This document shows positions 26,350-63,267 of a stretch of 64,000 nt of DNA, in pieces. This DNA is from Acidobacteriota bacterium (GTDB lineage Bacteria > Acidobacteriota > Terriglobia > UBA7540). Each line of letters begins with the position of its first letter. Within the stretch, counting starts at the first letter, position 1. Location of the stretch: NCBI GenBank assembly GCA_003225365.1, contig QHZN01000079.1, forward strand, positions 2,459-66,458, written 5' to 3'. The notes beneath the pieces were generated by a model, which saw nothing but the letters and a program-made list of their open reading frames with translations, searched no databases and was not told the DNA's origin. A program made the position numbers and the translations under genes.

Positions 26350-27633
26350 CTAGCGGAGGAATCCACGGAAGCGCGCGGGTGAGACGGCAAAGCCCGGAAA
26401 TACGGGCGAGGTGTTTCGAGCGCCCAAATGGCGGACGAGCACTTCCGCGAACACGTCGCGAAAATCGCTGGTGAGCGCGACGTCGCGGCCTTCGTTGAGC
26501 TGCTCGGGCCGAAGCCCCGGCCAGCGGCCGTAAACCTTCCCGCCTTTCACTGGTCCCCCCAACGCAAACATCACGCTGGCATGGCCGTGGTCGGTGCCGC
26601 GGTTGCCGTTCTCGCGCGCCGTGCGGCCAAACTCGGTCATGCTCAAGACGCAAATATCCGCCATGCGTTCTCCCATGTCGCGGTGGAAGGCGGCGAGCGC
26701 CTCGCCGAATTCCTGGAGGCGGCCGGCGAGTTGGCCTTCGACGCCGCCTTCATTAACGTGATTATCCCAACCGCCGACTTCGGCGAACGCGACCTCGAGG
26801 CCGACGCCGGCCTTGATCAATTGCGCGATTTGCTGGAGGTTTCGGCCGAGCTGCCCGCGCGGGTATTCGGCGCCGTTTGAGGGCTGGTAATTCTCGAGCC
26901 CGACGTGCTCGAGCGTCGTGGCCGCTTCGATCATCTCACGCGCCGCGCGAGCGAAGAGCGGATCGGAGGTGGAGGCGTACATCGCTTCGACGGTTCCGCC
27001 GAGGGCCCCGCCTTTTCCGCCGGGAAGGTGAAACGCGCGCAGGTCGTCGAGCGCCAGAGCGGGCGCCGGGCCGGCGAGCATCCTCGGCATGCGCGGCGCG
27101 AACGCCACGGCGCGAAACGGCGAGGTCTCATCTCGCGGCGCGGGATCCGCCGACAGATAGCGGTTGAGCCAGCCATCCTCGGTGGCCTTCTTGCCTGGCG
27201 TCGCCGATTCCATGTAATCCTGCGCGTCGAAGTGTGAACGAGTGTTATCGGGCGAGCCGGCTGCGTGGATGATGGCAAGCTGACGGTTGTCGAAGAGCGG
27301 CTTGAGGGCAGCGAGCTTAGGGTGCAGGCCGAAGAAGCCGTCCAGGTCAATTGCCGCCCCGGCTCCGGGACCGCCCTCAGGCATGGTGGCGCTCGGCCTC
27401 GGGACGGCGATGGTCGGGCGCAGGGAGTAATAGTCCGGCTCGCCGTAAGGCACCACGATGTTCAGACCGTCCGCGGCGCCGCGCTGAAAAATGGCAACTA
27501 AGATTTTCTTTTGCGCGCTCGATGCTGGTTGCCCCATCGCAAACGCCGTGCGCCTGAGGAAACTCGGGACGAACCCGATGCCGAACAGGCTTAGCCCCGC
27601 GGATTTGATGAAATAGCGGCGGGATAGAGGCAT
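26350..27633 (-). CDS. DUF1501-family (sulfatase-fold) protein with Tat signal
   Basis: MPLSRRYFIKSAGLSLFGIG is a twin-arginine signal. GGWDNHVNEG and TEFGRTARENGNRGTDHGHA blocks are typical of DUF1501. Confidence 0.85.
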   Translation of the reverse strand: MPLSRRYFIKSAGLSLFGIGFVPSFLRRTAFAMGQPASSAQKKILVAIFQRGAADGLNIVVPYGEPDYYSLRPTIAVPRPSATMPEGGPGAGAAIDLDGFFGLHPKLAALKPLFDNRQLAIIHAAGSPDNTRSHFDAQDYMESATPGKKATEDGWLNRYLSADPAPRDETSPFRAVAFAPRMPRMLAGPAPALALDDLRAFHLPGGKGGALGGTVEAMYASTSDPLFARAAREMIEAATTLEHVGLENYQPSNGAEYPRGQLGRNLQQIAQLIKAGVGLEVAFAEVGGWDNHVNEGGVEGQLAGRLQEFGEALAAFHRDMGERMADICVLSMTEFGRTARENGNRGTDHGHASVMFALGGPVKGGKVYGRWPGLRPEQLNEGRDVALTSDFRDVFAEVLVRHLGARNTSPVFPGFAVSPARFRGFLR

Positions 27634-27660
27634 GACAATCCTCCACCGAGTTGGGGTTTA

Positions 27661-27744
27661 GTTCTGAGTTCTGAGTTTTGTGCCCTCAGTCCTCAGTTGT
27701 CACTTCTGACTCCTGACTTCTTGCTCGCCACTTGCCACTGTTCT
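27661..27744. repeat. Degenerate heptad array (GTTCTGA GTTCTGA ... CTTCTGA CTCCTGA CTTCTTG ...)
   Basis: About 12 consecutive 7-nt units fill the DUF1800-DUF1501 intergenic space. The first 15 nt match the 56650 array in 14 of 15 positions. Confidence 0.75.
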
Positions 27745-27746
27745 TC

Positions 27747-29588
27747 TCACCGTCTTTGAAATTCCGGTGAAGCCATGACCATGCCCGCCATCAACGCTAT
27801 CTCGCGCGGTGTCTCGTGCCGGATTGAGCTCGCACCGCTCCCCTCGCCGACTTTGGCGAGGATTGCCTTCCGGGTTGGGCCCGAAAGCTCGCCGCCGACA
27901 AGCCGGCGCGCGAGGTTATCAAGGACGGATTCCTCGGGCGCGTTCGCATCGGCACCCATCGCCCGGTTCCAGTCAATTGCAGTGCCCTGAATTCGATTGG
28001 CGGCAAGCCCTGCGGCAAAGTTGATGCGCGTGAGGAGCGAGCCAGGATTGATCCAGGTGCTTGCGCGGTCGGGGAATCCAGTGGGCGCCTGGAACTGGAA
28101 CATTGGCTGGCCCATGCGGGCGATCATCTGAAGCGTCGGAACGCCCGCGTCGGTCTGGCCGTCGAGCGCCCGCAGCGAGCTCGCCACCAGTTCAAGGGGT
28201 GACTTCACTTTCGAGCGGAAAGCCGCCTGGGAATAAAACTCGGGAGACGTGAGAATCACCTTGAGCACGGCGCGGATATCACCGCCAGACTTGAGAAAGG
28301 TTTGGCTGGCGCGCTCCACAAGTTCCGGCGGAGGGTCGTCGGCGACGAAGCGGCGGCAGAGCTTCAACGAGATAAAGTGCGCGGTCGCGGGATGATGCGC
28401 TAAGATGTGAAGCACCTTCGTGCCGTCCTCAATGCCGTGGCCGGACTTGAGCTTGTGATCCAGAACCACCTTTGACCCGAAATCGTGCATCTGGGGCCTG
28501 AAGACATAGCCCCCACCCTGCCGCGGGCGGTCAATCGTCCAGCCGGTCAGGCAGCGTGCCAATTCGATCACATCCTTCTGTGTGTAGCCGCCCTCGACGC
28601 CCAGCGTGTGCAGTTCCATCAATTCGCGCGCGTAGTTCTCATTCAACCCGCGGCTGGTTTTCTTCGCATGTCCGGCGCGCGGGGCTGAGAGCGGTGGGCG
28701 GCTGGTCCGCGGCGCGAACATTCTCGGGCGCGGGTAGCCGAATAGTCCGTAGTAATGCCGACGCGCGCGACGGCGGCCAGCCGACGGGTTCCGATAGGGA
28801 TGTTGCTGGGGATAGTCTTTCGGCGAGGCGCTCATCCAGTTGTCCAGGTAAAAAAGCATCGCCGGACTCTTGGCCGTTGCCGCGAGCAGGTCCTCGAACT
28901 TCCCGAGCGCGCGGGGCCGAATAGTGTCGCGCTCGAAGGATGTCGTCAGCCAAGCGTCCGCGCCCTTGGGGGCGAAAATATTGAAGTGGTTCATCCAGAA
29001 CTGGACCATGATTTCCTGAAGTTGCCGCCTGCTGTAAACCGCCCGCAAGACCTCTTCCTGGGCCAGCTCCATGATGACGCGCCGCGGCCCTTCGACTTCC
29101 ATCGCGCCAGGCTTTGGGGCCTGCATGGACATTGTAGGCGTCGCACGGTTGCCCTTTGCGGAGGGTTGCTCGCGCTTGGCCTGGGTCCCTTGCTTCGGCG
29201 GCGGGTAGTTCTCAACCAGTTCCTCGGGGGACATCTGGAGCGTCGGGAGCGCAGCCACTTTCGCCTCCACGGCCGCGTCGTCAAGCCGTTCAGGATGCAA
29301 CTGCTCGTCGAGAAAGGCGGCAAGCCCCATCCCGCGGAGACGCTCCAGGTCGCCGGGCCGCGCCCCGAAGGTGATTCGATCCAAGAGCTGCAACGCCTTT
29401 TGGTCGTCGTTCAGTGGCTCACTCCAGCCCGCTTCTTCGCGCAATGGGGCGGACGCCTTCTTCACGGCGAGAAGCGAACCGCTGAACGGCTGAATGATGA
29501 GAGAGGCCGCCAAAAAGCCAATAACCCATGCGGCGAAAAGCTCCCGCACCTCCCGAACCGCCTTCCTCGCTGGGTTTAAGCTGAACAT
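27747..29588 (-). CDS. DUF1800-family protein
   Basis: About 613 aa, located directly upstream of the DUF1501 gene, which is the usual pairing. Conserved-looking blocks include LLDRITFGARPGD, NYARELMELHTLGV and YTQKDV. ATG 29588 is preferred over GTG 29606. Confidence 0.8.
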   Translation of the reverse strand: MFSLNPARKAVREVRELFAAWVIGFLAASLIIQPFSGSLLAVKKASAPLREEAGWSEPLNDDQKALQLLDRITFGARPGDLERLRGMGLAAFLDEQLHPERLDDAAVEAKVAALPTLQMSPEELVENYPPPKQGTQAKREQPSAKGNRATPTMSMQAPKPGAMEVEGPRRVIMELAQEEVLRAVYSRRQLQEIMVQFWMNHFNIFAPKGADAWLTTSFERDTIRPRALGKFEDLLAATAKSPAMLFYLDNWMSASPKDYPQQHPYRNPSAGRRRARRHYYGLFGYPRPRMFAPRTSRPPLSAPRAGHAKKTSRGLNENYARELMELHTLGVEGGYTQKDVIELARCLTGWTIDRPRQGGGYVFRPQMHDFGSKVVLDHKLKSGHGIEDGTKVLHILAHHPATAHFISLKLCRRFVADDPPPELVERASQTFLKSGGDIRAVLKVILTSPEFYSQAAFRSKVKSPLELVASSLRALDGQTDAGVPTLQMIARMGQPMFQFQAPTGFPDRASTWINPGSLLTRINFAAGLAANRIQGTAIDWNRAMGADANAPEESVLDNLARRLVGGELSGPTRKAILAKVGEGSGASSIRHETPREIALMAGMVMASPEFQRR

Positions 29589-29763
29589 GCGTCCGCCCCG
29601 TGTCACTTTAGCGCGCCTTACCCATTCTAAACCCCCACGGCCCGCGAAAGCTCCGCCGCCGTTCGCGGCGCCGGCTCACAAGATTACAGTCCCAGCCATT
29701 ATATCCATCTTCGCCCACGACATCGTCGCCTCAAGTATTTACATACTATTGAAGAGTACGATT

Positions 29764-30516: not shown

Positions 30517-30748
30517 CGGCTCCGAACCTCTCGATAATAATACAGAGCCGAACCTGATTTCGTGTTATTTCGCGCCCTGATCGAAAAAAGGTTGCGCCAG
30601 CATCGCCACACGATTGAAAGGTGGTGGACGGTCTCGAAAGTTGGGGCGGCACTAGACATCCGCGGCCCAGTGAGTCATATTGTTGGCCGCGGGGCCTGCC
30701 GGCTCAATCGAGGTGGTCGGAGTCGGCGATTATTTCCTTGGGGGAGCC

Positions 30749-31815
30749 ATGCCCGGACTGAAAGAAAAACTCGCGGCCGAGATTCCAGCGCTTCGCGCGG
30801 AAGTCCATCAATTGTTGAAGGACCACGGGAGCGCAGTGATCTCGGAGGTGACGGTCGCGCAAGCGTTTGGCGGCATGCGTGGAGTGAAGGGTCTGGTATG
30901 CGACACCTCGGTGGTGGACCCCGAGAAAGGCGTCATCATCCGCGGTATGCCGGTCGCCGAACTCGTCGGCCGGCTGCCCGAAGAGGTCTTCCATCTGATG
31001 GTGACGGGCGAGCTTCCCGACGGCGAGTTGCTGGCTTCCCTTCAGAATGACCTCAGCCGCCGCGCCCACGTGCCAGAATACATCTGGGATGTTTTGCGGG
31101 CCATGCCCCGCGACTCCCATCCCATGGCGATGTTTGCGGCGGCGATACTTGTGATGGAGCGGGAGTCAGAATTCCGGCGCCGCTACGCGGAGGGCATTCC
31201 CAAAGACGAATTTTGGGTCCCGACCCTCGAGGACTCACTGCAATTGCTCGCTAAACCCCCGGCCATCGCGGCGGGGATTTACCGCCTCCGCTTTCGCAAA
31301 GGCGAGCCGATCCTTTCCGAATCCACGCTCGATTGGGGCGCCGACTATGCCCGCATGCTGGGGTTGCCGGACCCCGCGGGCGCGACGATCAGCTTCGGCA
31401 ATTCGTATTGGAAACGCTCAGGGATGGGCGCCTTGTCCCCGGCTATGGACACGCCGTCCTGCGGGTCACTGACCCGCGGTTTACACCCATCCACGAGTTT
31501 GGTGCCCGAGTCGCTGCGCAAGACGAGGTGTTCCGAATCGTCGATCGCCTTGCGGCAATCGTTCCATCCGTCCTCAAGGAGCAAAGCAAGGTCAAAGACC
31601 CGTGGCCGAATGTGGACGCCGTTTCAGGAGCGTTGCTCTACCATTTTGGCCTCACGGAGTTCGATTATTACACCGTACTATTCGGCGTTTCCCGCGCACT
31701 CGGTATGTCGGCACAGCTTATTATTAATCGCGCCCTCGGGACTCCAATCACCCGCCCAAAGTCCGTCAGCACCAATTGGATAAAAGCGAAGGTGAGCTCG
31801 CTCACCCCGGCCTGA
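30749..31815 (+). pseudogene. gltA: Citrate synthase (eukaryotic-like/type I) with an internal deletion of about 75-80 codons and a frameshift
   Basis: Frame 1 matches up to ...DWGADYARMLGLPDP. Homology then resumes in frame 2 at DDQLRQFVLETLRDGRLVPGYGHAVLRVTDPRF...DPWPNVDAVSG...YYTVLFGVSRALG...RPKSVST. The block that normally lies between them (..LH.DHEGGN..GPLHGLAN.., with one catalytic His) is absent. Confidence 0.8.
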
Positions 31816-32010
31816 GCCCGAAATCTCCCCTATAGCACTTAAAGGCTACAACTAACGGGCCATTGCTCTCCCTCATATGTCTTGCTAATTTGCATATTTG
31901 GGGGTCATATGCTTTGCGGCTCTGGAAACACTGAATTCATCTACATACTACGACCTAGGGTATTTCACTTAAATGAGCATATTCTTGCACGATTGCAGAT
32001 GAATTATTTT

Positions 32011-32061
32011 GCCGATTTGGTCTAGTGGATAGATCCAGAGTCGGTTCGATCCTTGCTGGCA
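32011..32061 (+). other. tRNA-like fragment (acceptor, D-arm and T-arm-like parts; no anticodon arm)
   Basis: GCCGATTTGGTCTAGTGGATAGATCCAGAGTCGGTTCGATCCTTGCTGGCA contains a D-arm (GGTC-TAGTGGATA-GATC) and a T-loop (GG-TTCGATC-C). It is too short and too mismatched to be a functional tRNA. Confidence 0.3.
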
Positions 32062-32358
32062 TTGCCCTTCTGACACCCAACACATTGAAAGCCCGAGAGA
32101 TGGAGCAATAGGGATGGTTCTCACCGATCCGAACCTAGATTGGGTTCGAGGGTTTGCTTGGAAGTTAACTTGCTCCTCAATAGGCGAGGCGAAAGCTAGT
32201 CATGATTCTTCGAAAGGGCATGCTCCCGTCATTTCCGAATTACAGGAATCCAGAAAAAGAGGTTCCCAGTTCGAGGGTTTGTTTTTGGCAAATAAATTGA
32301 CTTTCAAAGCGTCTGTCCAGACACCTAAAAAAAATCAGTCATCAGGAGGAGTGTAGCC

Positions 32359-33615
32359 ATGAAGAAGTGGGCTCTTTTACCGCTAGTAACAGGATTGGTA
32401 GTTCTCGGCGCCTCGCTGAGTTTTGCGCAGAGTCAAACCTCGCGGCGCGGCGTCGTCGTTGTTCCCTACTCGACCCAGGAGATGCCCTGGGACGTGGGGT
32501 TCCGGGCACATACGAACCACTTGATCATGGTGCGACCTGATTTCATAGGTACCTCCCCATGGGGTGAGACACCGGGCTCGCTCTCCTGCGTCTACCAGAC
32601 TGTTTCCGGGAACCCGGGCTGCGCTGTCAGCTCCAGCAAGACCGTGGCGACGGGCGGCTCAGGCATCATCGCTATAGTGGACGCGTACGATTACGTGACT
32701 GCGGCGAGCGACTTCGGCGTGTTTTCGGGCCAGTTCGGCTTACCGACGGGAAACACCTGCAACGGGGGCAAGCCGTGCTTCAGCGTGGTTTACGCATCAG
32801 GAAGAAAACCCAGGGCGAACTGCGGTTGGGCGCAGGAAGCGGCGCTCGACATCGAGTGGTCGCACGCCATGGCTCCGAATGCTCAGATTGTGCTCGTCGA
32901 GGCCGCTTCGAACAGCTTCGCAAATCTGTACGCAGCCGTGGATAAAGCCAGTTGCATCGTCAGCACGGGCAACATTAGCAGCAGTTGCGGCGGTTCCGGC
33001 ACCAATTCGGGCGAAGTCTCGATGAGCTGGGGCGGCAGCGAGTCCTCGGGTGAGTTGTCGGCCGATTCCCACTTCACCACCCCGGGGGTTGTTTATTTCG
33101 CCTCCAGCGGCGACACGGGCGGGAAAGTCATTTACCCATCGGCTTCGCCGAACGTCGTGTCCGCAGGCGGAACCTCTGTCAATCGCGACGGTTCTGGAAA
33201 CTTTACTGGCGAGTCAGCATGGAGCAGCGGCGGCGGCGGGCCCAGCCAGTATGAGTCGCGCCCCGGCTACCAAGATGCGGTCATTAGCATGGTCGGCAGC
33301 AAGCGTGGCACACCGGACTTCTCCTTCGATTCCGATCCCACCACCGGCGTTTCAGTGTATGACACCACGTCCTGCCAGGGCTTGAGCGGCTGGCTGGTCT
33401 TCGGCGGAACCAGCGTCGCCTCGCCAGCGCTTTCCGGCATTGTCAATCTCGCGGGGCACTCCTATTCCGGCACGACCGAGCAGAGTACGATTTACAGCAA
33501 CCTCGGCACGAAGAATTTCCTCGACATCACATCGGGGTCGAACGGATACTCCGCCCTCACCGGCTGGGATTTCGCCACCGGCGTGGGCAGCAATGTGGGC
33601 TTGATCGCTAAGTAG
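32359..33615 (+). CDS. Secreted sedolisin-like (S53) serine-carboxyl peptidase, no classical prodomain (paralog 1)
   Basis: Signal peptide MKKWALLPLVTGLVVLGASLSFA. S53 motifs are IAIVDAYD, QEAALDIEW (E..D pair), VSMSWGGSE, ASSGDTGG and GGTSVASP (catalytic Ser). A strong RBS (AGGAGGAG) lies upstream. Confidence 0.85.
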   Translation: MKKWALLPLVTGLVVLGASLSFAQSQTSRRGVVVVPYSTQEMPWDVGFRAHTNHLIMVRPDFIGTSPWGETPGSLSCVYQTVSGNPGCAVSSSKTVATGGSGIIAIVDAYDYVTAASDFGVFSGQFGLPTGNTCNGGKPCFSVVYASGRKPRANCGWAQEAALDIEWSHAMAPNAQIVLVEAASNSFANLYAAVDKASCIVSTGNISSSCGGSGTNSGEVSMSWGGSESSGELSADSHFTTPGVVYFASSGDTGGKVIYPSASPNVVSAGGTSVNRDGSGNFTGESAWSSGGGGPSQYESRPGYQDAVISMVGSKRGTPDFSFDSDPTTGVSVYDTTSCQGLSGWLVFGGTSVASPALSGIVNLAGHSYSGTTEQSTIYSNLGTKNFLDITSGSNGYSALTGWDFATGVGSNVGLIAK

Positions 33616-33642
33616 CTATCAGTCCGAACCGAGCCTCTTAGT

Positions 33643-33672
33643 GGGCCTTTCTGCGGAAAGGCCCTTTTCGTT
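33643..33672 (+). terminator. Rho-independent terminator after S53 paralog 1
   Basis: GGGCCTTTCTGCGGAAAGGCCC hairpin followed by TTTTCGTTT. Confidence 0.75.
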
Positions 33673-33801
33673 TAGGCGATTCCAGGTCCGCTCGGAAGGT
33701 CAGCTCACGTCTTAATTAATCGCGACCTCGTGAAGCGCACTGCTAAGTCCTTCAGCACCAATTGTATAAAGATGGGGACGCGCTCTCTCACGCCGGCTTG
33801 A
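33672..33801 (+). pseudogene. Relic of a citrate synthase 3' end (duplicated fragment)
   Basis: 33701..33801 aligns by eye with 31714..31815. For example, CAGCTCACGTCTTAATTAATCGCGACCTCG pairs with CAGCTTATTATTAATCGCGCCCTCGG, and TTCAGCACCAATTGTATAAAG pairs with GTCAGCACCAATTGGATAAAAG. The translated tail ..FSTNCIK..SLTPA* matches ..VSTNWIK..SLTPA*. Confidence 0.7.
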
Positions 33802-34004
33802 ACGGAAAACTGTCGAATGGCACCAAAGGGCTATTGCCCCCTTTTCCCACCGTGTGCTAACTTGCAGGCTCTGACGATCTCTTCAAGTCATCTGGTTACC
33901 AAAGGTAGTCGCCTTTTCAGGGAATTGCTTTTGCCAAATCCGCGGAAGCTTCTAACGTTCGGCTCAATACCTAAGAAAAACAAGTCACCAGGAGGGGTAT
34001 AACA

Positions 34005-35246
34005 ATGAAGGAGCGGACTCTTTTCCCGTTGTTAGCGGTATTTGTACTTCTCAGCGCTTCGCTGACTTTCGCTCAAACAGCAGGATCGCAGCACGGCGTC
34101 GTTGTCGTTCCCTACTCGACCCAGGAGATGCCGTGGGACGCAGGGTTCCGAGCCCACACGAACCATTTGATTATGGTTCGGCCGGATTTTACGGGGACAA
34201 GCCCATCGGGTGAGACACCCGGGTCGCTTTCTTGCGTTTACCAAACCGTCTCCGGACCCTCGGGATGCCCGATTAGTACCAGCACCACCGTGGCGACGGG
34301 CGGCTCAGGCATCATCGCCATCGTGGATGCCTTCGATTACCCGACCGCGGCCAGCGACTTTGTGACGTTTTCAGGCAAGTTTGGTTTGCCGACGGGAAAC
34401 AACTGCAACGGCGGCAAGCCGTGCTTCAGAGTGGTTTACGCATCAGGAACGCAACCCCGGGCGAACTGCGGTTGGGCGCAGGAAGCCGCGCTCGATATCG
34501 AATGGGCGCACGCCATGGCCCCGAATGCACAAATTGTTCTTGTCGAAGCAGCTTCGAACAGCTTTTCGAACCTTTTTGCGGCCGTGGATGTGGCCACCGG
34601 TATCGTGACCAGCGGCGGGGGTTCCGGTGAAGTCTCCATGAGCTGGGGCGGCAGCGAGTTCTCGGGCGAGTCGTCGAACGACTCCCATTTCGCCACCACG
34701 GGCGTTGTTTATTTCGCTTCGAGTGGCGATTCGGGCGGGAAGGTCATTTACCCATCCGCCGCGCCAAACGTCATCTCCGCCGGCGGAACCACGGTCAATC
34801 GCACTTCGGGAAACTTCACTGGCGAGTCGGCGTGGGGGAGTGGCGGGGGCGGGCCGAGTGCGGACGAAGCCGAGCCCAGTTACCAGTCTGTGGTAACCAC
34901 GGTCAACCTCAACGGAGCGCGGGGAACGCCGGACTTCTCATTCGATTCCGATCCCAACACCGGCGTTTCCGTGTATGACAGCACGCGTTGCCAGGGCTTC
35001 AGCGGCTGGCTGGTGTTTGGCGGTACCAGCGTCGCCTCGCCGTCGCTCTCCGGCATCGTCAATCTGGCCCACTACACTCATCCGACGACGACCGAGGAGC
35101 ACGCGCTCATCTATGGCACCTACAACAGCTCGAACTACTCGACGGATATCTTCGACATCAAGGCCGGGTCGAACGGGTTCGGCGCCCTCACGGGCTGGGA
35201 CTTCGCCACCGGTGTCGGCAGCAACAAAGGGTTGTCGGGTAAGTAA
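34005..35246 (+). CDS. Secreted sedolisin-like (S53) serine-carboxyl peptidase, no classical prodomain (paralog 2)
   Basis: By eye about 75-80% identical to paralog 1. It carries the same motifs (IAIVDAFD, QEAALDIEW, VSMSWGGSE, ASSGDSGG, GGTSVASP) and has a signal peptide and a conserved RBS region. Confidence 0.85.
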   Translation: MKERTLFPLLAVFVLLSASLTFAQTAGSQHGVVVVPYSTQEMPWDAGFRAHTNHLIMVRPDFTGTSPSGETPGSLSCVYQTVSGPSGCPISTSTTVATGGSGIIAIVDAFDYPTAASDFVTFSGKFGLPTGNNCNGGKPCFRVVYASGTQPRANCGWAQEAALDIEWAHAMAPNAQIVLVEAASNSFSNLFAAVDVATGIVTSGGGSGEVSMSWGGSEFSGESSNDSHFATTGVVYFASSGDSGGKVIYPSAAPNVISAGGTTVNRTSGNFTGESAWGSGGGGPSADEAEPSYQSVVTTVNLNGARGTPDFSFDSDPNTGVSVYDSTRCQGFSGWLVFGGTSVASPSLSGIVNLAHYTHPTTTEEHALIYGTYNSSNYSTDIFDIKAGSNGFGALTGWDFATGVGSNKGLSGK

Positions 35247-44862: not shown

Positions 44863-45936
44863 ATGTCTGTGGCCGATACAGAAAAAGAACTGAAAGGCGG
44901 TCTGCGCTACGGCCCCTATGTCACCCTCGACGAAATCCGGGGACTCGCCGCCGAGATGACTTGGAAATGCGGCGTCGTCAACATTCCGTTCGGCGGCGCC
45001 AAAGGCGGCGTCATCTGCGATCCCGAAAAACTTTCGACTGGCGAGCTGGAGCGGATCACGCGACGGTACACGGCGGAAATCCTCGACTACATCGGCCCGG
45101 AGCGCGACGTCCCCGCCCCGGACATGAACACCAACGAGCAGACGATGGCCTGGATCATGGACACCTACTCCATGCACGTCCGGCACACGGTGACGGCGAG
45201 CGTGACGGGAAAGCCGCTCGACCTCGGAGGCTCGCGCGGCCGCCGCGAGGCGACCGGGCGCGGGTGCATGATCGTCTGCGACCAAGCCCTCAAACGCTTC
45301 GGGCGCGACCGGCAATCCACGCGCGTCATCGTCCAGGGATGCGGAAACGTGGGCTCGCAGGCGGCGCGGCTGATGCACGAGGCCGGCTATAAGATCGTCG
45401 GCGTTGCAGACATCCACGGCGGCGTATTGAACACGCACGGGCTTGGTATCCCCGCCTTGCTCGAATACGTCAAGGAAAACAAGACGGTCAAAGGCTTTCC
45501 GGAGGGCGACCCGACGAACGCTCAGGAGATTCTCGAGCAGGATTGCGAAATCCTGCTGCCCGCGGCGATAGAAAGCGTCATCAACAGCAAGAACGCGGCG
45601 CGCATCAGGGCGCGGATCTTGGTCGAAGGAGCGAACAGTCCCACTACGCCTCCCGCCGACGACATCCTTTTCGAGCGCGGCGTCTTTGTCGTGCCCGACA
45701 TCCTGGCCAACGCCGGCGGCGTCACCGTCTCCTACTTCGAATGGGTCCAAGACCGGCAAGGCTACTTCTGGCCGGAAGGCATCGTCAACGATCGGCTCAA
45801 GCAGATCATGGTCGCGGCCTTCAACGATGTCGTCCAGTACGGCGAAAAGCACAACGTCAATAACCGTATCGCGGCCTATATGCTGGCCATAGACCGCGTC
45901 GCGTTTTCGGTGAAGCTGCGCGGGATTTACGCATAA
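44863..45936 (+). CDS. gdh: Glutamate dehydrogenase paralog lacking about 55-60 N-terminal residues (short form or 5'-truncated pseudogene)
   Basis: The ORF starts at ..[14 protein letters not shown].. and continues with [31 protein letters not shown] and [12 protein letters not shown]. An in-frame stop lies 30 nt upstream, and no GDH-like sequence is present in any upstream frame. Confidence 0.7.
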
Positions 45937-45988
45937 AGGTTCCGAGGCCTACGCCCGGAAACTCCCGCTCGGTCAAAAAGGATGCCCC

Positions 45989-46165
45989 ATGGATCAAGCC
46001 GACAACGAAAATCCCTCCAAGCGAGCGAACATTCTCCGCCGAGTACTGGACTGGGTTAACTGGGACGAAATCGTGGACCTCGGCGACCTGATCATTTTCG
46101 GACCCCACACTGAAACCCTTAAGTGTACCCTTCGTGCATTCAATGGAAAGGCGTATGCCGACTGA
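45989..46165 (+). CDS. Small hypothetical ORF (58 aa) overlapping the DUF433 start
   Basis: MDQADNENPSKRANILRRVLDWVNWDEIVDLGDLIIFGPHTETLKCTLRAFNGKAYAD. It is below the ORF-track length cutoff and overlaps the next gene by 11 nt. I recognise no family, so this is weak. Confidence 0.25.
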   Translation: MDQADNENPSKRANILRRVLDWVNWDEIVDLGDLIIFGPHTETLKCTLRAFNGKAYAD

Positions 46166-46379
46166 CTGGAAAAAGTACATCACCAGCGATCCGCAATTCC
46201 TGCGTGGGAAGCCACGAATCAAGGGCACTCGAAGTCCCGTAAGCCTGGTGCTGGGATACCTCGCAGCCGGAAAAGACGCCGACGAGGTCATCGCCGAGTT
46301 TCCCGACCTGACCAAGGCTCAGTTCGCGGCTTGCCTGGACTATGCCCGTGACCTCTCCGAGTTCGAGGCCGCGATCTGA
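46155..46379 (+). CDS. DUF433-domain protein (antitoxin-like), orphan
   Basis: ITSDPQFLRGKPRIKGTRSPVSLVLGYLAAGKDADEVIAEFPDLTKAQFAACLDYA matches the DUF433 pattern. No DUF5615/PIN-like partner lies downstream. Confidence 0.75.
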   Translation: MPTDWKKYITSDPQFLRGKPRIKGTRSPVSLVLGYLAAGKDADEVIAEFPDLTKAQFAACLDYARDLSEFEAAI

Positions 46380-46414
46380 GCCCTCGCCTATGCCCGCGAA
46401 CGATGGCGCCGCCG

Positions 46415-46669
46415 CTACAATCCACTCCATTCATTAACGGTGACGGCGCGGCTTAAAATGCCTTCCACCTCGCGAAGCGGGATGCGGAGCTGCGGGACGG
46501 AATATTCAGGATTGGTCGGGATCGCGAGGCGCTTCTGGCCGAATACCATGAACTGATGTCGGCCCCCAGAAAACGGACCGTCGAAACCCAGCCCACGGAG
46601 CCGCGGTATGAAGTCGCCGCGTTTACACGGTGTCCACCGGCTCACGCGCGGGCTCCCGGTTGAGGTCAA
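46415..46669 (-). CDS. hicA: HicA-family toxin (start uncertain: TTG 46669 or GTG 46645)
   Basis: ..LRGLGFDGPFSGGRHQFMVFGQKRLAIP.NP.. resembles the HicA subfamily block LGFEGPYSGGKHQFM. It overlaps the end of hicB. Confidence 0.7.
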   Translation of the reverse strand: MTSTGSPRVSRWTPCKRGDFIPRLRGLGFDGPFSGGRHQFMVFGQKRLAIPTNPEYSVPQLRIPLREVEGILSRAVTVNEWSGL

Positions 46670-46895
46670 TGCCGCTGAGGACGGGCAATGGATGCTTCAG
46701 CCGAAGCCCCAGCAGCACCCAGTCCTCGAGAGTCGAGCGCAACTCTTCTTCACATTCCTTGAGAGAAATGCCAAAGGCAGCGACACCATGACAGTTCGGT
46801 ATTCGCCCGGCAAATGTGCCGTCTTCGAGCTTGTCGAAGGCGGCATCGCTCATGGCCGCATTCAAGTAGTCGCTCAAAACGTAGCGTATGCCCAA
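46623..46895 (-). CDS. hicB: HicB-family antitoxin
   Basis: (TTG)GIRYVLSDYLNAAMSDAAFDKLEDGTFAGRIPNCHGVAAFGISLKECEEELRSTLEDWVLLGLRLKHPLPVLSGIDLN is the typical HicB/UPF0150 pattern. GGAGG lies 6 nt upstream of TTG 46895. Confidence 0.75.
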   Translation of the reverse strand: MGIRYVLSDYLNAAMSDAAFDKLEDGTFAGRIPNCHGVAAFGISLKECEEELRSTLEDWVLLGLRLKHPLPVLSGIDLNREPAREPVDTV

Positions 46896-47105
46896 CACAC
46901 ACCTCCAGCCCTGCTTCCGATTATAGCGCAGGATTTCCCGCGGTGGGCGTGACCGTTCAGGGGGACCGCAAACCAATGAATGCGACAAGAAACTCGACAA
47001 GTTCAGCCAATTGCCTCCTCTCCTTCGGCGCGTTAGACTATGCCGGCTGCCGGGTCCTGCCCGCCTTCTTTCGAGGGTGGCTCAGGGTCAGGAAAAGGGG
47101 GGGAA

Positions 47106-48328
47106 ATGCCTGTTCAAACGAAAGAAAAGAACGCGCATGAGGTGGCACTGGAAAACTTTGATATGGCGGCAGATGCGCTCGACCTGAGCAACGATATGCG
47201 GGCTATGATCAAGTATCCAGAAAGGGCGCTACAAGTCGGCTTGCCCGTGCGTATGGATGATGGGCATATCGCTCACTTCGACGGTTTCAGGGTACAGCAC
47301 AACACGGCTCGCGGACCGGCCAAAGGCGGAATTCGCTATCATCCGAACGTCACTAAAGAGGAGGTCATGGCTCTGGCCACCTGGATGACCTGGAAGTGCG
47401 CGGTCGTCAATATACCTTTTGGGGGCGGGAAAGGCGGAGTGTGCTGCAATCCGAAGGAAATGTCGAACGGGGAAATTGAACACCTCACAAGGCGCTACGC
47501 CGCTTCCATCTTGCCGCTCATCGGCCCGCAACAGGACATCCCGGCTCCGGATGTTTACACCAACTCCCAGATCATGGCCTGGATCATGGACACCTACAGC
47601 ATGACCAAGGGGTATTCCGTCCCGGGAGTGGTGACCGGGAAACCCATCAGCCTAGGGGGATCGCTTGGGCGGAGCGAAGCGACCGGACGAGGCGTGTTCA
47701 ATACCATTGAATCCGCCCTGGAACATCTGCGCCTCGCCCTGAAGGGAGCGCGGGTCGCGGTGCAGGGTTTCGGCAATGCGGGGTCCGTGGCGGCACAAAT
47801 GCTCGAAAACCACGAAGCCCGTGTCATCAGCGTGAGCGATTCTCGAAACTAAACCAACACAAAGAACGGACCGGCTCCGTTGCGGGGTTCCCTGGCTCCG
47901 AGCCGATCCGACCCGAGGAGTTGCTCTCGCTCGCATGCGAAATCCTCATCCCGGCGGCTCTGGAAAACACCGTTCACGGAGGAAACGCAGGGCGCGTCCA
48001 GGCGAAGCTGGTCGCCGAAGCGGCCAACGGACCACTCACACCGGAAGCAGATAGAATTTTGGAAGCGAAAGAAACCTTCATTATTCCCGACATTCTCTGT
48101 AACGCCGGCGGGGTGACCGTGTCTTACTTCGAATGGGTGCAGGACGAGCAGCACATGTTCTGGGAGGCACAGGACGTTTACAACCGCTTGGAGCGGGTTA
48201 TGAACGTCGCCTTCAAGGAAGTGCTGCGAATTCACATTGAACAAAAAGTGGGGATGCGCACAGCGGCCAATATGCTGGGCATCGGACGCGTCGCCGAAGC
48301 CACGAAAGCTCGCGGCCTTTATCCCTGA
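47106..48328 (+). pseudogene. gdh: Glutamate dehydrogenase with a small internal deletion and frameshift
   Basis: Frame A (47106..47852) reads ..[62 protein letters not shown] and ends at TAA 47850. GDH homology resumes in another frame at ..[52 protein letters not shown]... About 15 codons expected between VSDS and LxxHK are missing. Confidence 0.8.
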
Positions 48329-57724: not shown

Positions 57725-59263
57725 ATGCGGGTTGTCAAATCCATTTCGGAAATCCACAGCCTTGCGCGCGACGCACACGCACGGGGGCGATCCTTGGCAC
57801 TGGTCCCCACGATGGGCGCGTTGCACGAAGGCCACTTCTCACTCATCCGCCAAGCCAAACGGCAATGCGATGTCGTCGTGGTCTCGATTTTCGTCAACCC
57901 CAAACAGTTCAACTCTCCCGAGGACCTCACCGATTACCCTCGAGACCTGAACCGTGACCTGGAACTCCTGGAGCCCTTGCGAATTGACGCAGTCTTTGCC
58001 CCCAGCGAAATGGAAATGTATCCGGAGGGATTCTCGACCGGGGTCGTCCCCGGGGAGGTCGCGAAGCCGCTCGAGGGAGAGTTTCGCCCCGGTTACTTTG
58101 CCGGCGTCGCCACGGTGGTATTGGAGTTGTTGAATATCATCAGGCCGGATCTCGCCTACTTCGGCCAGAAAGATTTCCAGCAAACGCTCGTCGTCCGCCG
58201 CATGGTCGAGGACTTGAACCTGGACGTGCGGCTGGTGATATGCCCCACTATGCGCGAAGCGGACGGCCTGGCTTTCAGCTCCCGCAACTCGCGGCTGAAT
58301 CCCGAGGAGCGGAAAGCGGCGACGGTGCTCTACCGGAGCCTCTGCCGCGCCGAAAAATTGGCGCACGGAGGCGAAAGCCTCGCCTCGAAGCTCCTCAAAG
58401 CAATTCGTGAGGTTTTCGCCGGCGAGCCCCTCGCTCGGCTCGAATACGCCGCCGTGGTCGAACCGCAAAATCTGAAGCCGGCCAAGCGCGTGATCTCCGG
58501 GTGCGTGGCCCTCGTCGCCGCGCGGGTGGGAGCCGTACGTTTGATTGACAACCTCATCCTCGGGCCGCTCGGCGCGGCTCCGGAAATGCTTCTTCAACTC
58601 GCGCTCACCTCCTGGCCCATCCTGGATGCCGGAGGCTTGATCCCCGGATTCGAGACCGAAACCACCCGCGTGAAGATTGCGGCTTGCCGCGAGTGCGCCG
58701 CAATCCCCACCATTCTTCTTCCCCCCCGGGAATTCCTGTCCGGCTACGTCAAGATGTATTATCCGGACCGGGGGGCTCCGCGCATCGCCGTCATCGGCCG
58801 CGACGCACCGCTCAGTCCGAGCACCTTCCTTTACCGCCAGCCGGAAACGGGGAACCGATTCGTGGCGGGGCTTTTCGACCTGTTGGGTGTCAAGAGCTTC
58901 ACAGAATTCAAGCAGCGATTTGTGCTGACGGACGCCCTCCGCTGCCATTCCACTGCGCCGCACGTCGCCGAAAAAGGGCTGGCCTACTGTTCGCACCACT
59001 TGCGCGCCGAGCTGAAACTTTTCCCGAACCTCCATACGTTCGTCGTGCTCGGCGACGACGCTTACCTCCAGTTCCAGCGCCACCTGCTCGAGCGCGGCCC
59101 GGGCGGCTTCAAGCCCTTAGACGAGCTGCTCCAGCCGCAGGGCTGGGCGCGCGAGGAGGTGCGCATCCCCACGCTCACCGCGCGACTCCTGAAGGTCTTC
59201 TATTGTTACCATCCGACCTTCGGCTACAAGCGCAGCCCTTCCATCGCTCCGTTCCTCGCCTGA
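57725..59263 (+). CDS. panC: Pantoate--beta-alanine ligase fused to a C-terminal UDG-superfamily-like (family-4-type Fe-S) domain
   Basis: The PanC part covers aa 1 to about 280 (VPTMGALHEGH, SIFVNP.QF, YFGQKDFQQ, SSRN, ..RLIDN). The ORF continues without a stop for about 230 aa and carries C-x2-C, IGRDAP, FVAGLFDLLG, TDALRCH, YCSHHL, VVLGDDA and YHPTF. Confidence 0.85.
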   Translation: MRVVKSISEIHSLARDAHARGRSLALVPTMGALHEGHFSLIRQAKRQCDVVVVSIFVNPKQFNSPEDLTDYPRDLNRDLELLEPLRIDAVFAPSEMEMYPEGFSTGVVPGEVAKPLEGEFRPGYFAGVATVVLELLNIIRPDLAYFGQKDFQQTLVVRRMVEDLNLDVRLVICPTMREADGLAFSSRNSRLNPEERKAATVLYRSLCRAEKLAHGGESLASKLLKAIREVFAGEPLARLEYAAVVEPQNLKPAKRVISGCVALVAARVGAVRLIDNLILGPLGAAPEMLLQLALTSWPILDAGGLIPGFETETTRVKIAACRECAAIPTILLPPREFLSGYVKMYYPDRGAPRIAVIGRDAPLSPSTFLYRQPETGNRFVAGLFDLLGVKSFTEFKQRFVLTDALRCHSTAPHVAEKGLAYCSHHLRAELKLFPNLHTFVVLGDDAYLQFQRHLLERGPGGFKPLDELLQPQGWAREEVRIPTLTARLLKVFYCYHPTFGYKRSPSIAPFLA

Positions 59264-59341: not shown

Positions 59342-61207
59342 CTAATTCGCCGCGACGGGGAGCTCGATACTCGACGCCAGCCGCTTCGAGCGGTAGATGC
59401 GCTCTGTGGCAGGTTGATAGTCGGCGTCCGTGGCCTCGAAAATGTTCGGCACGAACTTTTGGGGATTGCGGTCGATCAGCGGGAACCATGTGCTCTGGAC
59501 TTGGACCATGATCCGGTGGCCCCTCAAGAATGTGTGGTTATTGGTGTGGAGATCAATACGGTATTCGAGCGGCAGATTTGGCGGAATTGGTACCGCCTTC
59601 TCGAAGCTCTTGCGGAAACGCCCCCGGAACACCTCGTCGGCGATGATGAGTTCGTAGCCGGCCAGGGGCATCCCCGCAGCGCAGTTGCACTCTTCGGGCT
59701 TGGCGACGAGCTTCGAGTCCTCGGGGTACACATCAATGAGCTTGACGATCCAGTCGCTGTCCGTGCCGGAGGTCGAAGCGAACACGTCGGCGACGATGTC
59801 ACCGGTGGCCGTCAGGTCCGCCGCGAGCGCGTCGGTCTGGTAACTCAGCACGTCGGGGCGATGCTCCACGAAGCGCTGATCTTCCACCAGCCACAGCGGC
59901 CACTCCGGCCCGGGGTATGTCGGCGTGATGGGCCGGTGGCGATAGGGAATCGGATGAGCAGGGTCGGAGACGTAACTGTCAAATGCGCTCCCCGCCTCGA
60001 CCGGCGCGTCGAATGCGAGTTTGTTTCCCGAGCGGAAATAGAGATTCTTCGTGGTGATTCCCTGGCGCGGCGGCCATGCGTTGTAAGACGCCCACTGGTT
60101 CGTCCCGGTCTGGAACGTCAGCGCCTTCGGCTGCTTCAGTTCGCCTTTGTCCTTCAACCAATAGTCGAACCAAGGGTTGCTGATTTTTTCGTGGTAGTCG
60201 CGGCAGGTGTCTTCGCCGAAATCAATCGTCCCCAAGGCATGGCAGTGCGGGCGCGACCACTGCCCGTGATTCCAAGGGCCGGCGACGAAATAGTTCAGAT
60301 GCCGGTTGTCGCCCTTCTCCATCAACTCGAAGATTTTCTGTGGGCCGTAAAAATCTTCTTGATCCCACCAGCCCGCAACGTTGAGCGTGGGTACGGTTGT
60401 CTCCTTCAAGAACGAGAAGAAGGCCTGTTTCCGCCAATATTCATCGCGGTTAGGGTGCCGGACGAAATCGTTCCAGGTGGGAAGCCGACCGTGAAAGTAA
60501 AGCCGGTTGACGTTCGACAGGGCGCCCAGATTCAAGTACCAGTCGTAAGTGTCGTAGCGATCGAATGCAAAGTGTGTATCGGCTTCCTTCGCGGATTCGA
60601 GCAACGCGGCGTATTCGAACCCGTAGCTAAGGCGGAAGGCGCCGTTGTGGTGAAAATCGTCCCCGAGAAACATGTCGGCGGGCGAGGCGCCTTCAATGGC
60701 AGCCTTGAGCGCGGGGTGAGGATCCACCAGCGCCATCACCACCGTCCATCCCAGGTAAGAAACGCCGAACATCCCTACGCGGCGGTTGTTGTTCGGCAGG
60801 TTTTTCACCAGCCAATCAATCGTGTCGTAGGCGTCCGAGCTTTCGTCTACCGCCTTCCCATCGCTGCGGTCGCGCGGCGGGCGCTGCATGACGAACTCGC
60901 CTTCGGACTTGAAGCGTCCGCGCAGATTCTGGAACACCACAATGTCGTCGGTGCCGGCCGGGCAGCATTCATCCGGCACGCCATACGGCCCGCGCGTGAA
61001 TAGTATAGGCAGCGGCACACTCTGGTCCTTGGGCGTGAAGACCACCGTTTGGAGGCGCACTCCGTCGCGCATCGGGACCATGACTTCCGCGCGCGTGAAG
61101 TTAGGCGGCGGTGGCTGCTGGGCGGCCCAGTTATGGCTCAGGAAGGCCGCGCCCGCTGTCGCAGCCACGGCCGCGGCGATCCATCGCTTGCTGTGGAGAA
61201 TCTTCAA
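59342..61207 (-). CDS. CocE/NonD-family (S15 X-Pro dipeptidyl-peptidase-like) hydrolase, secreted
   Basis: RDGVRLQTVVFTP...PILFTRGPYG..., the nucleophile block GMFGVSYLGW, and a C-terminal beta-sandwich region. TTG 61207 has GAGGGG upstream and is followed by a signal peptide (KILHSKRWIAAAVAATAGAAFLS). The longer ORF extension overlaps bcp. Confidence 0.85.
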   Translation of the reverse strand: MKILHSKRWIAAAVAATAGAAFLSHNWAAQQPPPPNFTRAEVMVPMRDGVRLQTVVFTPKDQSVPLPILFTRGPYGVPDECCPAGTDDIVVFQNLRGRFKSEGEFVMQRPPRDRSDGKAVDESSDAYDTIDWLVKNLPNNNRRVGMFGVSYLGWTVVMALVDPHPALKAAIEGASPADMFLGDDFHHNGAFRLSYGFEYAALLESAKEADTHFAFDRYDTYDWYLNLGALSNVNRLYFHGRLPTWNDFVRHPNRDEYWRKQAFFSFLKETTVPTLNVAGWWDQEDFYGPQKIFELMEKGDNRHLNYFVAGPWNHGQWSRPHCHALGTIDFGEDTCRDYHEKISNPWFDYWLKDKGELKQPKALTFQTGTNQWASYNAWPPRQGITTKNLYFRSGNKLAFDAPVEAGSAFDSYVSDPAHPIPYRHRPITPTYPGPEWPLWLVEDQRFVEHRPDVLSYQTDALAADLTATGDIVADVFASTSGTDSDWIVKLIDVYPEDSKLVAKPEECNCAAGMPLAGYELIIADEVFRGRFRKSFEKAVPIPPNLPLEYRIDLHTNNHTFLRGHRIMVQVQSTWFPLIDRNPQKFVPNIFEATDADYQPATERIYRSKRLASSIELPVAAN

Positions 61208-61217
61208 TAGACACCCC

Positions 61218-61676
61218 TCAGGGCTTAAGTGCCTGGAGCACTTCGCGAATGTGGCCGTCCACTCTGACCTTCGGAAATATGCGCACGATGCGCCCGTCGG
61301 CGTCCAGGATATATGTCGTTCGCACGATCCCCATTTTCTTGACACCGTACATGTTCTTTTCCTGCCAGACGCCGTAAGCCTCGAGGGCTTTGTGCGAGGG
61401 GTCGCCGGCCAGCGGGAAATTGAGCTGGTATTTGTCACGGAACTTGGCGAGCTCTTCCACGGAGTCGGCACTTATGCCGAGCACGCTTGCGCCAAGCTTT
61501 TCCATTTCCTTATGGGCGTCCCGAAACTCGGTCGCCTCAGCGGTTCAACCCGGCGTGTCCGCCTTTGGGAAAAAGTAGAGCACCAGTTTCTTTCCCCGAA
61601 AATCTTTGAGGGAGACATTGCGGCCAGAGTCCGCGGGCAGCGAAAAATCGGGAGCAGCATCTCCTGGATTCAGCAT
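61218..61676 (-). CDS. bcp: Bcp/PrxQ-type peroxiredoxin with in-frame TGA (61545..61547) at the peroxidatic Cys position; candidate selenoprotein
   Basis: The minus-strand translation MLNPGDAAPDFSLPADSGRNVSLKDFRGKKLVLYFFPKADTPG-U-TAEATEFRDAHKEMEKLGASVLGISADS...YGVWQEK...ILDADGRI aligns along its full length with Bcp (YFYPKxxTPGCTxxACxxRD). Both halves are in the same frame. Confidence 0.75.
61515..61536 (-). promoter_or_regulatory. SECIS-like hairpin downstream of the in-frame UGA of bcp
   Basis: The mRNA reads UGA-ACCGCUGA-GGCG-A-CCG-AGUUU-CGG-GA-CGCC. This gives a 4-bp lower stem, an internal loop, a 3-bp upper stem and an apical loop containing G, about 17 nt from the UGA. Confidence 0.5.
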
Positions 61677-61756
61677 CGAAGCTTGACCCCTAAATGTAAA
61701 ATTGCCGTGCTCCCGATAGAAACGGGGGAGATCCCGCCCGGCACTACGCGAGCGCG

Positions 61757-63232
61757 CTACGAACCGAGCTCTTTCTTTAAAATTTCCTGGACAAGCTGCG
61801 GGTTTGCCCTGCCGCCCGTGGCCTTCATTACTTGGCCGACGAACCAGCCGAGCAGGGCCGCCTTGCCGCCGCGGTACTGTTCGACCTGCTTTGGATTCGC
61901 CGCCATGATCTCGCGCCCCACGGCGGCGATTTTTTCCGGGTCGCTGATCTGTTCAAAGCCCTTGCCGGCAACAATTTCACTCGCGGCACGCCCGGTCGAA
62001 AACATCTCGGCGAGGATGTCCTTTCCCATTTTGCCGGAGAGGGTGCCTTTGGCGACCAGCGCCAACAACTCCGCCAGTCGCTCCGGCGAAACGGGGGATT
62101 CCGCGATTTCCTTTCCCGCCTCCTTGAGCAGGTGGGAAAGCTCGCTCAAAATCCAGTTGGCGGAAAGCTTCGGCTCACCCGCTCGCCTGACCGCTTCTTC
62201 GAAGTAGTCCGCGAGCGCCTTCGAGGAGGTCAGTTGCGCGGCGTCGTAATCTCCCAGCCCATATTGGTCGACGAAGCGAGCCCTTTTCGCCTCAGGCAAC
62301 TCCGGCATCGAACGCCGGACTTCTTCCTTCCACTCCTCGCTAATGACCAGCGGCAGCAGGTCGGGCTCCGGGAAATACCGGTAGTCGTGCGCGAATTCTT
62401 TCGAGCGCATGCCGTAGGTGCGCTGCTCGCGGCTGTCCCAAAGGCGCGTCTCTTGCAGGATTTCACCACCCTCTTCGAGCACCCCGATTTGCCGCTCGAT
62501 TTCGTGCGCCAGCGCCTTTTGGAGAAACTTGAAAGAGTTCAAGTTCTTGACTTCGGTCTTCGTCCCAAAGGCGGTTCGGCCCGCGCGGCGCACGCTGACG
62601 TTCGCGTCGCAACGCAGGCTCCCCTCTTCCATGTTGCAATTCGAAACTTCCAAGTAAAGCATCAGCGTCTTCAAGCGAGTCAGGTAGTCGTAGGCTTCCT
62701 CGGGCGTCCGAAGGTCCGGCTCGCTCACGATCTCAATCAGCGGGACGCCGGAGCGGTTGAGGTCAATATAAGATTTGCGGTCGGAATCCGGAAAGCCCTC
62801 ATGGAGAGACTTGCCTGCGTCTTCCTCCAGGTGAACGCGCGTCACACCAATGCGCTTGGCCTTCCCGGCCACTTCAATGTCCAGCCAGCCGGCGCTCGCC
62901 AGCGGCTCGTCGTACTGCGAGATTTGATAGCCCTTCGGCAAGTCGGGGTAAAAATAATTCTTGCGCGCGAAGCGTGAGCGCGGGTGGACCGCGCAATTCA
63001 GCGCCAGCGCCGCCTTCATCGCCATGGTCACCGCCTCGCGGTTCAGGACCGGAAGCGCCCCGGGCAGGCCCAGGCAGACGGGGCAAGTGTTGGAGTTCGG
63101 CGGGTCACCGAAACGAGTCGAGCAAGAGCAGAAGATCTTTGACCGGGTCAGGAGCTGGACGTGAACTTCCAGGCCGATCACTGCTTCGTATCGGGCGAGA
63201 ACCTCGGGAGAGATCGCAGTTAAGCTCAACAT
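61757..63232 (-). CDS. gatB: Asp-tRNA(Asn)/Glu-tRNA(Gln) amidotransferase subunit B
   Basis: YEAVIGLEVHVQL.T.SK.FC.C...PN...CPVCLGLPG.LP..N plus the C-terminal YqeY-like tail (GWFVGQVMK.T.G.ANP). ATG 63232 is preferred over TTG 63250. Confidence 0.95.
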   Translation of the reverse strand: MLSLTAISPEVLARYEAVIGLEVHVQLLTRSKIFCSCSTRFGDPPNSNTCPVCLGLPGALPVLNREAVTMAMKAALALNCAVHPRSRFARKNYFYPDLPKGYQISQYDEPLASAGWLDIEVAGKAKRIGVTRVHLEEDAGKSLHEGFPDSDRKSYIDLNRSGVPLIEIVSEPDLRTPEEAYDYLTRLKTLMLYLEVSNCNMEEGSLRCDANVSVRRAGRTAFGTKTEVKNLNSFKFLQKALAHEIERQIGVLEEGGEILQETRLWDSREQRTYGMRSKEFAHDYRYFPEPDLLPLVISEEWKEEVRRSMPELPEAKRARFVDQYGLGDYDAAQLTSSKALADYFEEAVRRAGEPKLSANWILSELSHLLKEAGKEIAESPVSPERLAELLALVAKGTLSGKMGKDILAEMFSTGRAASEIVAGKGFEQISDPEKIAAVGREIMAANPKQVEQYRGGKAALLGWFVGQVMKATGGRANPQLVQEILKKELGS

Positions 63233-63267
63233 CGTACCGCTGCCTTTCAAAACCGTTTATCAAGCTC

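Follow-up and report, generated by a model that had tools for sequence, protein, structure and literature searches.

Peroxiredoxins of the COG1225/Bcp type, in which the active-site motif reads TxxU, constitute an established family of bacterial selenoproteins (PMC1088965, PMC1794560, PMC9312934, PMC13188914). In 2005, 43 genes of Sec-containing peroxiredoxins (Sec-Prx) were reported in the Sargasso Sea data (PMC1088965), and 12 were listed in complete genomes in 2006 (PMC1794560). The protein WP_011365628.1 serves as the Sec-Prx reference in the reviews of 2022 and 2026 (PMC9312934, PMC13188914), and its sequence is given in the supplement of PMC12013277. The SECIS stem-loop located directly past the UGA and bearing a G in its small apical loop is a bacterial feature (PMC1088965). 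As for the direction of evolution, the events that Zhang et al. inferred for Prx in 2006 were all Cys-to-Sec (PMC1794560, Table 1). PrxU of Eubacterium acidaminophilum is described in PMC13188914, with reference to Sohling et al. 2001, as a biochemically characterised Sec-peroxiredoxin.

The gene considered here, bcp (prxQ), is located in a window of 64,000 nucleotides, which is the whole stretch of DNA that was analysed, and belongs to this selenoprotein family, long known in bacteria. The first-pass annotation, made from the nucleotide sequence of the window, had described Sec-containing Prx-type proteins as known from a few anaerobes and from metagenomes; they are no such rarity, the family having been a standard bacterial one since 2004-2006 (PMC1088965, PMC1794560, PMC9312934). 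The window Bcp aligns with WP_011365628.1 at 43% identity over 148 residues (E 1e-43), U falling on U. Both are single-domain Bcp-type peroxiredoxins of about 150 residues with the context YF[FY]PKxxTPGUTxEA, both are free of Cys and would be 1-Sec enzymes, and in both the SECIS is expected in the coding sequence just past the UGA. At position +5 after the UGA, neither protein has Cys: the window protein carries Thr, the reference and most orthologs Asn. What sets the window member apart from the reference is its origin in soil Terriglobia and the fixed arrangement of gatB and bcp.

The Cys-containing Bcp/PrxQ proteins (NF006960; structure 5enu; Bcp of Xanthomonas campestris, 5iph/3gkk) share with the window protein the fold, the PxxxTxxC motif and the conserved Arg, but the window protein has the predicted Sec in place of the peroxidatic Cys and lacks the resolving Cys of the C-x4-C motif. 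PrxU is likewise a peroxidase of the thioredoxin fold with Sec at the peroxidatic position; however, it represents a different Prx subfamily and is longer (about 230 residues). In contrast to the record of Cys-to-Sec events only, the Terriglobia clade described below looks mostly Sec, with repeated change to Cys. The possible novelty of the window gene may lie in the lineage, in the fixed gatB-bcp arrangement and in the predominance of Sec with repeated reversion to Cys; the understanding of how selenoproteins work is unchanged by it.

A full-length bcp gene with TGA at the peroxidatic codon

The bcp gene occupies positions 61676..61218 of the minus strand and comprises 152 codons from the ATG at 61676, followed by the terminal TGA stop at 61220..61218. 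It contains a single internal in-frame TGA, codon 44, at 61547..61545 (minus strand). A mechanical list of open reading frames splits the gene, within one frame, into a 43-aa ORF (61545..61676) and a 95-aa ORF (61218..61505).

When Cys was put at codon 44, the Pfam profile AhpC-TSA (PF00578) matched residues 4-131 with an E-value of 2.5e-42, unbroken across the TGA and covering profile positions 1-122 of 124. With the same substitution, the protein scored 155.9 bits against the cut-off of 140 for NCBIfam NF006960, the Bcp equivalog of thioredoxin-dependent thiol peroxidase. Alignments with solved Bcp structures (5enu, 5iph and others) placed codon 44 on the peroxidatic Cys of the ..YF[FY]PKxxTPGCT.. 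block; the match to 5enu covered residues 8-150 of the window protein (E 3e-35). Translation, Pfam, NCBIfam and structure alignments thus bear out the earlier proposal that the TGA falls on the peroxidatic Cys of Bcp and that the frame continues into the 95-aa ORF. At the level of sequence comparison, it is confirmed that the window gene encodes a full-length Bcp/PrxQ peroxiredoxin with TGA at the peroxidatic Cys of PxxxTxxC.

Narrower and neighbouring groups were also compared. The protein scored 150 against a cut-off of 260 for the Deinococcus-type PrxQ (NF053650), which places it outside that narrower group, and 54.5 bits against 270 for PrxU (NF040737). The thiol peroxidase Prx-SUH (NF045827), which carries CxxU, gave 25.9 bits against 298, the window motif being TxxU. 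The Prx-like thiol:disulfide oxidoreductase selenoproteins (UxxC/UxxU) were rejected as well: the window U is followed by T-A-E, with no Cys at +3.

The active-site residues are Pro37, Thr41, the predicted Sec44 and Arg119, the motif reading P37-K-A-D-T41-P-G-U44. The protein contains no Cys at all, and Thr occupies position +5 after the TGA, in agreement with the first-pass view of a 1-Sec enzyme with Thr at the resolving position. Without any Cys, there is no resolving residue and an intramolecular disulfide cycle is impossible. Thiol-dependent peroxidase activity is predicted from the family.

As had been anticipated for a gene prone to be mis-annotated as a truncated bcp, public gene calls render it as fragments of 43 aa and 95 aa, and the 95-residue C-terminal fragment is recorded in 52 blocks of public assemblies. 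All full-length database relatives that were inspected are Cys forms. Owing to this fragmentation, protein catalogues and metabolic reconstructions lack the main Bcp of a common soil Acidobacteria group. The gene also suggests a selenium dependence of the housekeeping peroxide defence in abundant soil bacteria.

Conservation of the TGA and TGA/Cys alternation among orthologs

An ortholog scan with one genome per species yielded 80 loci, mostly from Terriglobia/Acidobacteriota metagenome-assembled genomes (MAGs). Close orthologs (n = 74, at 66-85% protein identity, from different Terriglobia genomes) carry TGA at codon 44 in 62 cases and TGC or TGT in 12, so that, with the window, 63 TGA genes stand against 12 Cys genes in a set of 75. 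Five distant relatives (four of the Pirellula group and one of Acidobacteriaceae) have TGC together with the C-x4-C motif, and L075, the sixth remaining locus, yielded no motif. The earlier expectation of a U/C column in alignments with homologs is borne out: Cys stands in this column in the 12 orthologs and in the outgroups, and U of the window aligns with U of WP_011365628.1. Alternation of Sec and Cys at a redox-active residue is the classical signature of a selenoprotein.

The close orthologs are otherwise open and collinear, with no extra stops or frameshifts. Among the TGA forms, dN/dS amounted to 0.116 upstream of the TGA (codons 2-43) and 0.131 downstream of it (codons 60-149), which indicates that both flanks of the TGA are maintained as protein. 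A blind search for TGA/Cys pairs in 605 kb, comprising the window and the related loci, revealed the bcp family as the sole recurrent case. A scan of coding potential for other genes with in-frame TGA in the window gave antisense shadow ORFs only, the filter being so insensitive that bcp itself was missed.

In a neighbour-joining tree of the proteins, built with the Sec and SECIS codons excluded, Cys forms appear at several separate positions inside the TGA-dominated clade, and parsimony requires at least seven Sec/Cys state changes, outgroups counted; the tree is based on 134 residues, has no support values and is indicative only. In L035, a Terriglobia MAG locus, codon 44 is TGT (positions 3130-3132), and all six core pairs of the hairpin described in the next section (6/6) are retained along with the frozen flanking sequence in the 45 nt downstream. 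Judging by these sequence features, L035 looks like a recent Sec-to-Cys change with a relic SECIS. It is suggested that the Sec form is the majority and possibly the ancestral state in a large clade of soil Terriglobia, Cys having arisen several times. Taken together, the 63 Sec and 12 Cys forms, among them an apparently fresh Sec-to-Cys convert that keeps its SECIS, make up a natural series useful for studies of Sec/Cys exchange and SECIS decay.

RNA signal downstream of the UGA and readings of the codon

The candidate core of the SECIS element is a hairpin (hairpin A) at 61515..61536 of the minus strand, found in the minimum free energy (MFE) fold of the window and by comparative pairing. 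It reads GGCG-A-CCGA-(GUU)-UCGG-GA-CGCC. The outer stem pairs 61536..61533 with 61518..61515, the inner stem pairs 61531..61528 with 61524..61521, and the apical loop GUU (61527..61525) lies 17 nt past the UGA. Taken alone, hairpin A of the window does not exceed shuffled sequence in stability (z = -0.68), and only the comparative data give it significance. In the ortholog alignment A1, where column n corresponds to window position 61551 minus n, the six core pairs are paired in 92.7% of cells over 62 TGA sequences, and compensatory changes occur at two pairs, 20-30 (A-U / C-G / G-U) and 18-33 (G-C / A-U / G-U). The observed pairing was matched by only one of 500 shuffles. The window, L001 and a subclade of 13-15 members share two extra pairs that close the GUU triloop, and A23-G24-U25-U26 (A1 columns) are invariant. 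Retention of the core pairs drops to 69% of cells in the Terriglobia Cys forms and to 40% in the outgroups. The covariation is thin, the hairpin region being almost invariant. A candidate SECIS-like structure is preferentially kept in the orthologs that carry the TGA, a point that the first-pass annotation had raised.

Synonymous change is suppressed in codons 46-58 (61503..61541, minus strand), a segment that contains hairpin A and the 3' arm of a second helix (helix B, see below). In this segment, the synonymous entropy of the TGA forms falls to 0.41-0.5 bits, compared with 1.0-1.8 elsewhere in the gene, while the Cys forms show 0.8-1.0. For codons 45-59, dS (Nei-Gojobori) amounts to 0.62 in the TGA forms, whose remaining codons give about 1.7, and to 1.48 in the Cys forms. 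A constraint that acts on the RNA, adjoins the UGA and is found in the UGA forms only matches the prediction for a bacterial SECIS.

Helix B (CCAGUUC/GAACUGG, 7 bp) joins A1 columns 21-27 with 43-49, corresponding to 61530..61524 and 61508..61502 in the window. It buries GUU and is mutually exclusive with hairpin A, and RNAfold favoured it in 40 of the 62 orthologs. Helix B has one compensatory pair, which is not above shuffles, is retained at 88% in the Cys forms and contains two mismatches in the window; its 3' arm also lies within the zone of frozen synonymous sites. The RNAalifold consensus, in which GAAC of UGAAC pairs with GUUC, was rejected: it shows no covariation, has an energy of -1.8 kcal/mol and has zero probability in single-sequence folds. 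No match to Rfam was obtained either for the whole window at the gathering threshold or for 61150..61800 at E up to 10. Coverage of bacterial SECIS elements by Rfam is not to be expected.

The folding and comparative data argue that hairpin A is most likely the conserved SECIS core, a candidate with which helix B competes in most orthologs. The hairpin that had been proposed at 61536..61515 stands as regards its presence in the MFE fold, its pairing in the TGA forms and its decay in the Cys forms; the preference for helix B in 40 of 62 orthologs goes against it.

According to the proposed scheme, which is modelled on established bacterial Sec decoding, translation would start at ATG 61676, and at the UGA 61547..61545 a SECIS in the ~45 coding nucleotides that follow would recruit SelB and Sec-tRNA(Sec). 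The core of the element would most likely be the hairpin 61536..61515 with its invariant apex A-G-U-U. Sec would be inserted instead of termination, and the chain would extend to the TGA stop at 61220..61218. The predicted product has 152 residues and a Pro-Thr-Sec-Arg peroxidase site and lacks the resolving Cys, so, by analogy with the family, direct recycling of the selenenic acid formed on reduction of a peroxide would fall to an external thiol partner, for instance thioredoxin.

Recoding of the window TGA to Sec, or at least recoding that depends on SelB and a SECIS, is considered highly probable, and the other explanations were weighed against the same data. A lone sequence with an in-frame stop would fit a bcp pseudogene with a nonsense mutation at the catalytic codon, and a disrupted glutamate dehydrogenase gene elsewhere in the window demonstrates that damaged genes or assembly faults do occur. 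However, the TGA is common to 63 genes at 66-85% protein identity with no further stops or frameshifts, dN/dS is ~0.12 on either side, extra synonymous constraint is found just downstream, and the divergence among the loci excludes copies of a single contaminant. A nonsense allele would not last across such divergence; the pseudogene is refuted in this way and retains only a minute likelihood, and the first-pass preference for recoding over a dead gene is upheld by the 62 of 74 orthologs with TGA and by the purifying selection on both flanks. A genuinely split gene, with separate 43-residue and 95-residue products or with a functional C-terminal part alone, has in its favour that gene callers give exactly 43-aa and 95-aa ORFs and that the window has an ATG at codon 58. 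But this ATG was found in no other TGA form scored, the first in-frame ATG past the TGA being mostly at codon 68 in the orthologs and, in many of them, only at codon 97, 109 or beyond, so there is no conserved downstream start; moreover, the catalytic residue would belong to neither piece and purifying selection acts on the first 43 codons as on the remainder. Such a split is hardly credible. The same can be said of a sequencing or assembly error, or of a genetic code with sense TGA, for which nothing beyond the bare possibility speaks. All 459 of 459 bases, TGA included, are identical in five independently assembled ENA metagenome contigs, which settles the earlier concern about a consensus error, and the TGA recurs in 62 other genomes. 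TGA is also the commonest stop in the window, terminating 28 of its 49 called genes, bcp among them, which contradicts an alternative code.

The identity of the inserted residue was weighed separately, because the comparative data reveal recoding and an RNA signal and do not tell which residue enters. The UGA might be read as an amino acid other than Sec, namely as Cys by a tRNA-Sec-shaped tRNA-Cys together with SelB, or by near-cognate read-through. Decoding of UGA to Cys by an unconventional tRNA-Cys acting with SelB is attributed to Vargas-Rodriguez et al. 2018 in PMC13582414. Nevertheless, the family is the catalogued Sec-Prx with an identical TxxU context, the Sec/Cys alternation at the redox-active residue carries the selenoprotein signature, and no such tRNA was found in the window, though the window holds no tRNA whatever. 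Given also its low prior, decoding to a residue other than Sec is very unlikely. A further, unlikely idea is that across the Terriglobia bcp clade the UGA and the SECIS sometimes direct Cys insertion via a tRNA-Sec-like tRNA-Cys and SelB, or that hairpin A and helix B act as a switch by which read-through is adjusted, perhaps to selenium supply. Such a switch would account for the synonymous freeze, which extends over both arms to codon 58.

Search for the Sec machinery, gene neighbourhood and other features of the window

The preferred reading, decoding of the UGA as Sec, presupposes the Sec machinery in the host. No SelA, SelB or SelD was found among the 49 Pfam-annotated genes of the 64-kb window, and ARAGORN predicted no tRNA, tRNA-Sec included, either in the window itself or in any of 60 related loci. 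Neither selA, selB, selD nor tRNA-Sec was detected in ~540 kb of related flanks. A tblastn search of the window and all loci with Treponema SelD and the Occallatibacter selenoproteins returned one weak match, in L016; it was rejected as SelD, the protein being ThiL-like. The class V aminotransferase at 22567..23697, which had been mentioned as a possible Sec/Cys lyase, was also dismissed: it scored 78 versus 525 for SclA and 111 versus 475 for the SufS family, below every NCBIfam cut-off, and is located 38 kb away from bcp.

Sec decoding in the window is supported at class level, the Sec trait being on record for Terriglobia. Three selenoproteins are described for the Sec user Occallatibacter riparius (Acidobacteriota; PMC12013277), and Solibacter usitatus possesses SelA, SelB and two Sec-FdhA (PMC1794560 supplement). 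With SelA of Solibacter as the query, at least 8000 clusters were obtained at E < 1e-30, the named ones being Acidobacteriia or Bryobacteraceae MAGs. Among the matches listed, the SelA proteins are Bryobacteraceae-like with at least 71% identity, and none is tied to a bcp-carrying bin.

The gene directly upstream of bcp is gatB (61757..63250, minus strand; Pfam GatB_N and GatB_Yqey), which in public calls begins six codons later and encodes 491 aa. Of the 80 related loci, 68 likewise have gatB upstream and in the same orientation as bcp, and gatB and bcp are possibly co-transcribed. A consensus scan of the 80-nt gatB-bcp spacer revealed no sigma-70-like promoter. A putative ribosome-binding site, AGGGG, can be read at 61687..61691 (minus strand), 10 nt upstream of ATG 61676. 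On the other side, a gene for an S15-family X-Pro dipeptidyl peptidase (59342..61207, minus strand; Pfam Peptidase_S15 and PepX_C) starts 10 nt past the bcp stop. The peptidase occurs in just 4 of the 80 related loci and is not a conserved neighbour.

Several other features of the window deserve mention. The panC gene (57725..59263) encodes 512 residues, of which residues 3-278 form the pantoate-beta-alanine ligase domain; the C-terminal ~230 residues have no Pfam match at 1e-5, and the protein may be a fusion with an uncharacterised domain. The region 44863..48328 contains two glutamate dehydrogenase (ELFV) genes placed around a small toxin-antitoxin-like pair, which consists of DUF433 (46134..46379, plus strand) and a UPF0150/HicB-like gene (46623..47000, minus strand). 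The first gdh (44863..45936) is likely truncated at the 5' end, its profile match beginning from position 35. The second is split between two frames, 47040..47852 and 47921..48328, and the profile match lacks ~40 positions in the gap; a frameshifted pseudogene, a rearrangement and an assembly fault are all conceivable.

Of the 357 positions in the citrate synthase profile, the ORF at 30680..31783 matches the first 165 and no more, and the ORFs at 32359..33615 and 34005..35246 have no Pfam match and a low coding score. The GC content of 30680..35246 is 0.57-0.58, compared with the window mean of 0.62, and this region may be foreign or degraded. Finally, an adjacent pair of DUF1501 (sulfatase-like) and DUF1800 genes is located at 26350..29606 on the minus strand, a pairing typical of Planctomycetes and Acidobacteria.
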